NCBI RefSeq assembly: GCF_003018115.1
Contig: NZ_CP027457.1
DNA from: Escherichia coli
Lineage (GTDB): Bacteria > Pseudomonadota > Gammaproteobacteria > Enterobacterales > Enterobacteriaceae
Strand: one strand, 5' to 3'
Length of the DNA: 64,000 nucleotides
Positions 26,838 to 27,559 of this stretch are shown here, one piece after another. Every line of letters starts with the position of its first letter. Position 1 is the first letter of the stretch. The translations under genes and the position numbers were made by a program. The notes under the pieces were generated by a model. That model ran no database searches and was not told the origin of the DNA. It saw only the letters and a list, made by a program, of their open reading frames with translations.

Positions 26838-26854
26838 AAATCAGACCAGTGGCG
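26838..26854. promoter_or_regulatory. Putative FadR operator (weaker) upstream of fadL
   Basis: Reverse complement CACTGGTCTGATTT partially matches ANCTGGTCNGACNTGTT. Confidence 0.4.
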
Positions 26855-26858
26855 AGAG

Positions 26859-26875
26859 TATAGGTCGGACCAGCT
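26859..26875. promoter_or_regulatory. Putative FadR operator upstream of fadL
   Basis: Reverse complement AGCTGGTCCGACCTATA matches FadR consensus at 13 of 17 positions. Confidence 0.55.
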
Positions 26876-27120
26876 GGAATGTTGCAAGTATGTTTCTATC
26901 TTTTTTCAAATATGATCTAAGAAACGCGATCCAGCTGGCAAAATTTGGAGGTGGCGCACTCATGGATTCGGGTGAATTTTGTTTTAGATCATTTTTAAGT
27001 GTGATTTCGGTCACTTATCCGATTTTGCAGAATTAACAACTGGAGCAGCACTTTCCGGAAGCGTAAAATATCCACAACGTTTATCTGGCACCTTGGGTGC
27101 ACATACAGAGGAAATCAACG

Positions 27121-27405
27121 ATGAGTAAATGTAGTGCTGATGAAACCCCGGTTTGCTGCTGTATGGATGTTGGCACCATTATGGACAACTCCGACTGCAC
27201 CGCGTCTTACAGCCGCGTGTTTGCAAACCGCGCAGAAGCAGAACAAACGCTGGCGGCGCTGACTGAAAAAGCCCGTAGCGTGGAATCCGAACCGTGCAAA
27301 ATCACCCCGACTTTCACTGAAGAGTCTGACGGTGTGCGCCTGGATATCGATTTCACTTTTGCCTGCGAAGCTGAAATGCTGATCTTCCAGCTGGGTCTGC
27401 GTTAA
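27121..27405 (+). CDS. yfcZ: UPF0381 family small protein YfcZ
   Basis: ORF-track frame 27097..27405; start placed at MSKCSADETPVCCCMD (94 aa). Confidence 0.85.
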   Translation: MSKCSADETPVCCCMDVGTIMDNSDCTASYSRVFANRAEAEQTLAALTEKARSVESEPCKITPTFTEESDGVRLDIDFTFACEAEMLIFQLGLR

Positions 27406-27422
27406 TTCCTCTCGGGTACGTA

Positions 27423-27459
27423 CGCCCCTGTCAGTTGTTGGCAGGGGCGTTTTCTTTTC
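27423..27459 (+). terminator. Rho-independent terminator after yfcZ
   Basis: cgcccctg..caggggcg stem followed by TTTTCTTTTC. Confidence 0.6.
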
Positions 27460-27542
27460 TCTTCTACTTTTCTCTCTGTGTCATAGCTCCCACTTTCCCT
27501 TTTCTCCACTTGGCTAAATGTAAAAAAATGGTTAAGACTATG

Positions 27543-27559
27543 ATCAGGTCAGACCACTT
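27543..27559. promoter_or_regulatory. Putative FadR operator upstream of fadI-fadJ
   Basis: atcaggtcagaccactt matches FadR consensus at about 12 of 15 informative positions. Confidence 0.5.

Follow-up and report, generated by a model that had tools for sequence, protein, structure and literature searches.

FadR operators of fadL and fadIJ on either side of yfcZ in an Escherichia coli chromosome

Three FadR operators flank yfcZ in the stretch of E. coli chromosome analysed here (the window: 64,000 nt of contig NZ_CP027457.1, assembly GCF_003018115.1), two upstream of fadL and one upstream of fadI, and all three are almost certainly operators that have already been characterised, a case of ordinary textbook regulation and not a new one. 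The arrangement is as given in the initial annotation of this DNA, and both the gene annotation and alignment to K-12 agree with it. FadR is the GntR-family fatty-acid sensor of E. coli; its operators at fadL have been mapped since 1993 and that at fadIJ since 2003, and they are listed in standard databases. As a discovery the sites are of little importance, the operators being known already. Their value is as a quality check, in which a real regulatory motif was recognised from raw sequence with one register error.

The genes directly downstream of the operators are, by annotation, fadL, fadI and fadJ, which serve fatty-acid transport and degradation. In the RefSeq annotation of an identical record, from which the gene coordinates are taken, fadL (25409-26749, minus strand) encodes the long-chain fatty acid outer-membrane transporter, and fadI (27586-28896) and fadJ (28896-31040) form the second regulated unit, an operon on the plus strand (27586-31040). 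Between the two units is yfcZ (27121-27405, plus strand; YfcZ/YiiS, DUF406), a gene of unknown function that is set apart from the fadIJ promoter because an intrinsic terminator, found by a terminator scan as a 13-bp stem followed by a T-run (27422-27450, plus strand), comes after it. The layout fadL–yfcZ–fadIJ is also that of K-12 MG1655. In alignment with MG1655 the fadL–yfcZ spacer has 100% identity, and the DNA upstream of fadI equals that of K-12 through the operator at 27543-27559, the first difference being 9 bp downstream of it. Because the control regions are identical to those of K-12, the K-12 literature can be transferred base for base. The 2.7-kb region around the sites is 100% identical in several E. 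coli O169:H41 chromosomes and is found in 5,425 of 5,426 complete E. coli genomes. The regulator gene fadR is outside the window; it is carried by 5,422 of the 5,426 genomes, a count for the species and not for the source strain itself.

The FadR consensus used here is a 17-bp pseudo-palindrome, ANCTGGTCNGACNTGTT / aaCTGGTCnGACC(T/A)Gtt. On the minus strand, fadL site 1 (AGCTGGTCCGACCTATA, 26859-26875) has two mismatches to ANCTGGTCNGACNTGTT and is exactly where the initial annotation placed its strong match. The fadIJ operator (27543-27559), also placed exactly, is the near-palindrome ATCAGGTCAGACCACTT, with three mismatches on the plus strand and two on the minus strand; its 5' end is 43 bp upstream of the fadI ATG. 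The weaker fadL match had been put at 26838-26854: the site is real, the coordinates are wrong by 3 bp, and the true 17-mer lies to the left, at 26835-26851 on the minus strand (CACTGGTCTGATTTCTA, site 2), where it has four mismatches, a perfect left half-site and a degenerate right half. In the register 26838-26854 (AAATCAGACCAGTGGCG / CGCCACTGGTCTGATTT), 10 of the 14 specified positions are wrong by eye on either strand, and the matrix score falls to -4.5 (rank 7,457 of 127,968). The shift evidently came from seeing the GACCAG core and then miscentring the 17-mer around it.

At fadL, published binding data are available for both sites. The 35-nt probes of Feng & Cronan (Table 2 of PMC3460868; the same probes are used in PMC4259882) map base for base to the minus strand, fadL-FadR-site1 to 26851-26885, enclosing site 1, and fadL-FadR-site2 to 26824-26858, enclosing site 2; the window sequence is identical to the K-12 sites 1 and 2 (DiRusso et al. 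1993; Feng & Cronan 2012, PMC3460868). The gap between the sites is 8 bp in that paper and 7 bp here, a 1-bp difference in site definition. Both sites bind FadR with equivalent affinity, binding being essentially complete at 50 nM; at both it is abolished by long-chain acyl-CoAs, oleoyl-CoA among them, and the gel shifts agree with earlier DNase I footprints (PMC3460868). The standing of site 2 as an operator rests on this published gel shift of an identical sequence.

For fadIJ the K-12 FadR site of the operon, then named yfcYX (Campbell, Morgan-Kiss & Cronan 2003, via PMC9329746), is present in the window with both its 17-mer ATCAGGTCAGACCACTT and its surroundings identical. A 2022 review lists fadL and fadIJ as direct FadR repression targets with sites overlapping the transcription start, and for fadIJ, citing Campbell et al. 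2003, it describes overlap with the start mapped by dRNA-seq (PMC9329746). Direct FadR binding at 27543-27559 rests on this review, together with sequence and conservation; a search of the literature turned up no FadR ChIP-exo data. Repression by FadR of fatty-acid uptake and β-oxidation genes, as initially proposed, is thus borne out by the gel-shift probes for fadL, the review for fadIJ, the sequence and its conservation. The proposal had labelled fadIJ as genes of anaerobic β-oxidation; its FadR repression of the operon stands, but the label is contested, as fadIJ is repressed by ArcA under anaerobiosis and regulated like fadBA (PMC9329746).

The geometry of the fadL promoter places both sites where a bound repressor could obstruct transcription. 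The likely -10 hexamer, read from the sequence, is TATACT (26857-26862, minus strand), a good one, and the final four bases of site 1 (TATA) are its beginning. Feng & Cronan describe two CRP sites at fadL, a validated one centred at -157 from the start, a distance that they call atypically far upstream, and a non-functional one 57 bp downstream of the start (PMC3460868). Both CRP probe sequences were located by eye in the window, and back-calculation from the published offsets would put the fadL start at about 26850/26851. Relative to this position site 1 spans about -24 to -8, overlapping TATACT, and site 2, which begins at or next to the start, spans about +1 to +17. The CRP site that gel shift has validated for fadL, TGTGATTTCGGTCACT (27001-27016), is within probe fadL-CRP-site1 (PMC3460868, Table 2), in the control region shared by the divergent fadL and yfcZ, and its sequence block is highly conserved. 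A promoter scan called neither the fadL nor the fadIJ promoter; its sole call, 26941-26912 on the minus strand, is inconsistent with the published fadL start and was set aside.

Two further elements of this divergent region merit a remark. The CRP site is also about 69 bp upstream of the likely yfcZ start, which is implied by an invariant TAAAAT (27065-27070), and it may serve yfcZ, or both divergent promoters. At 26920-26936 on the minus strand, about 70-86 bp upstream of the fadL start, there is a conserved AGCTGGATCGCGTTTCT that resembles the FadR left half-site; its matrix score is 4.2 in E. coli and rises to 11 in Raoultella and some Enterobacter loci. This element may belong to another regulator such as OmpR.

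A fadIJ promoter can be predicted from conservation. Its -35 is likely TTGGCT (27510-27515), followed after a 17-bp spacer by a predicted -10 TAAGAC (27533-27538), a poor match to a -10 hexamer; the whole element occupies 27510-27538 on the plus strand. TTGGCT and GTTAA are invariant among 78 distinct sequences. Such a promoter would start transcription near 27545, inside the FadR operator.

These positions are consistent with a mechanism of promoter occlusion. When long-chain fatty acids are lacking, FadR dimers sit on the two adjacent fadL operators, the dimer at site 1 lying over the spacer and the beginning of the -10 (four bases) and that at site 2 covering roughly +1 to +17, and FadR likewise occupies the one fadIJ operator, over its predicted transcription start. 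FadR bound in this way would block RNA polymerase at both promoters. Once fatty acid is imported, the long-chain acyl-CoA made from it by FadD binds FadR, brings the repressor off the DNA and allows both units to be expressed; it is well established that release proceeds via a conformational change of the FadR dimer, for which the review cites structures (PMC9329746). Activation by CRP and repression by ArcA are superimposed on this control.

The window sites share their build with the other sites of the regulon: those of fadBA, fadD, fabA and fabB are also 17-bp pseudo-palindromes with a CTGGTC-N-GAC core. They differ in placement from the activating sites, as FadR binds upstream of the -35 at fabA and fabB and activates, whereas at fadL and fadIJ the review places FadR over the -10/+1 region, as a repressor (PMC9329746). 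One such activating site is itself in the window. The top match of the FadR matrix, GGCTGATCGGACTTGTT at 46398-46414 on the plus strand, ends 67 bp upstream of the start codon of fabB (46481-47701) and is the FadR site inside the published fabB probe, where the FabR-site sequence comes next; a single substitution (A to T) just 5' of the site distinguishes the region from the probe. It is the known FadR activator site of fabB, and the window has four FadR sites, not three.

How far the sequence matches stand above chance depends on the threshold. At two mismatches or fewer, the consensus scan returns exactly three matches in 64 kb, with 0.25 expected from first-order Markov simulations, and all three are upstream of FadR-regulon genes (fadL, fadI and fabB). 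A weight matrix was built from four sites outside the window (fadBA, two of fadD, and fabA; probe table of PMC4259882) and scored at 127,968 positions, where fabB 46398-46414 comes first, fadI 27543-27559 second and fadL site 1 (26859-26875) third. In such a scan with a FadR model, which the initial annotation had suggested as a check, its strong fadL site and its fadI site thus hold up, and the register 26838-26854 fails. At the score of the fadL site 1 and fadI sites, three matches are found and 0.6 are expected per 64 kb, which taken by itself is no more than suggestive. The case is made by position, because the three top matches all precede the start codons of fabB, fadI and fadL, starting within 130 bp upstream of them. 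Among the next dozen matches every other one checked against the annotation falls inside a coding sequence; those at 6959, 32906, 38363 and 28516, inside evgS, yfcV, a fimbrial adhesin and the fadI coding sequence, respectively, were dismissed as chance. The four-site matrix recovers all known FadR sites in the window, and none of the higher-scoring matches that were checked is a false positive in non-coding DNA. Site 2 of fadL ranks 32nd, with a score of 8.15. An asymmetric matrix is preferred because the right half of site 2 is not palindromic; a symmetrised one, in which that site falls to rank 259 or worse, was dropped.

About 80 species of Enterobacteriaceae retain all three operators and, at fadL, the 24-bp spacing between sites 1 and 2. 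Loci were fetched via YfcZ, 80 in all from about 25 genera of the family, and 77 of them have the order fadL–yfcZ–fadI; the remaining three are without a fadI match, and two of these end just after yfcZ. Nearly all of the 80 loci have the three sites at a fixed distance from the start codons. Upstream of fadL, the matrix in nearly every locus scores highest at the orthologues of sites 1 and 2. Their starts precede the ATG by about 126 and 102 bp, and in all loci that yield both, the centres of the pair are 24 bp apart. Upstream of fadI the best match is the orthologue of 27543-27559, its 5' end 40-50 bp from the ATG in every locus. Variation within all three operators is confined mainly to non-contact positions. 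Of 81 distinct orthologous sequences from upstream of fadL, 79 have the site 1 core, CTGGTC-N-GACCTATA, and changes are concentrated at positions 1 and 2 and at the central base, all of them N or weakly specified in the consensus; in site 2, CACTGGTCTGATTTC is nearly invariant. Among the 164 17-mers of the yfcZ–fadI spacer, conservation is highest at the fadI operator, and 62 of 78 distinct sequences have it unchanged. The region upstream of fadL is conserved almost throughout, because CRP, ArcA and OmpR sites and an sRNA target are also there: 74 of its 355 17-mers are at least as conserved as site 1, and 31 of 355 as site 2. Conservation there supports the operators and is not specific to them. 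Beyond this family, fadIJ and fadL belong to a FadR-regulon core common to Vibrionales and Shewanellaceae too (PMC5343134).

Matches to a degenerate consensus may arise by chance and have no regulatory role, and some of the counts are what that would predict. At three mismatches the window has 9 matches against 4.6 expected, an excess that is not significant, and at four mismatches 52 against 37, which is uninformative; at the matrix score of fadL site 2 there are 32 matches and 31 expected window-wide, so on sequence alone this site is indistinguishable from chance. Such a coincidence is nevertheless scarcely credible. Each of the three best matches stands no more than 130 bp before the start codon of a fatty-acid gene, both fadL sequences are published binding probes, and conservation over about 80 species extends to the two fadL sites and the fadI site; matches as good as site 2 are expected only 0.04 times within 40 bp of site 1. 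Between them, the published gel shifts and the conservation leave chance effectively refuted at each of the three sites. A more limited doubt concerns site 2, which could be conserved mainly as the start and initial transcribed sequence of fadL, or as the site of another factor, with site 1 doing the work of FadR repression. Only the left half-site of site 2 matches the consensus, its rank under the symmetrised matrix is low, nearly the whole fadL 5' leader is conserved, and repression of fadL by FadR is only modest despite the two sites (PMC9329746, PMC3460868). This is improbable all the same, given the equal affinity of FadR for both sites and its release by acyl-CoA (PMC3460868), the invariant 24-bp spacing to site 1, and the several genera in which the right half is nearer to consensus (e.g. 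GACTGGTCTGATTTGTC, score 16.5). FadR binding at both fadL sites and at fadI remains the preferred reading.

A different question is whether FadR is the sole user of these operators. PdhR is a pyruvate-sensing regulator of the GntR family, and the fadI operator and fadL site 1 may, tentatively, be shared operators that it also binds, with two metabolite sensors in competition. Both carry the core GGTnnnACC, and each agrees with the PdhR box AATTGGTnnnACCAATT at 10 of its 14 positions; nothing else in 26750-27700 resembles that box as closely, and a score this high is reached at only 21 of 63,984 positions in the window. In genomic SELEX, PdhR gave a peak between fadI and yfcZ and bound weakly at fadL (PMC7660256). 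The published peak is about 60 bp from the fadI operator, and its authors assigned it to a box that matches less well, at 7 of 14 positions (27590-27606; PMC7660256). Against shared use, this box likewise has the full GGTnnnACC core, and PdhR is reported to activate fadIJ (PMC7660256), a poor fit to binding over the start unless it displaces FadR. A more specific version, and a slightly more doubtful one, is that the fadIJ operator at 27543-27559, and perhaps fadL site 1, could double as the PdhR site behind the fadI/yfcZ SELEX signal, in which case the 'activation' by PdhR would be anti-repression of FadR. If this were true, one operator would be contested by two sensors from a single protein family, one for acyl-CoA and the other for pyruvate. 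Shared use of this kind would add to the role of FadR at these sites and would not replace it.

Some features of the surroundings are recorded here in their own right. In 77 of the 80 Enterobacteriaceae loci yfcZ stands between fadL and fadIJ, and its lasting association with fatty-acid genes is a hint of a related role, although it proves nothing. An Rfam search of 25000-29000 returned nothing above threshold; a Spot 42 match over the end of yfcZ and the terminator reached 21 bits (E = 0.72), where the gathering score is 80, and was dismissed as chance. Between mlaA and fadL, at 23774-25042 on the minus strand, there is a gene for a 422-aa hypothetical protein where K-12 has yfdF (about 352 aa), so a strain-variable gene stands beside the conserved fad locus. 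Further away, at about 12-21 kb, mapping onto the annotation of strain F9792 gives, in order, a tRNA-Arg gene, a truncated integrase fragment, IS200/IS605 (tnpA, tnpB), a sucrose-utilisation (csc) cluster and a truncated dsdX, a stretch that looks like an island inserted at the tRNA.
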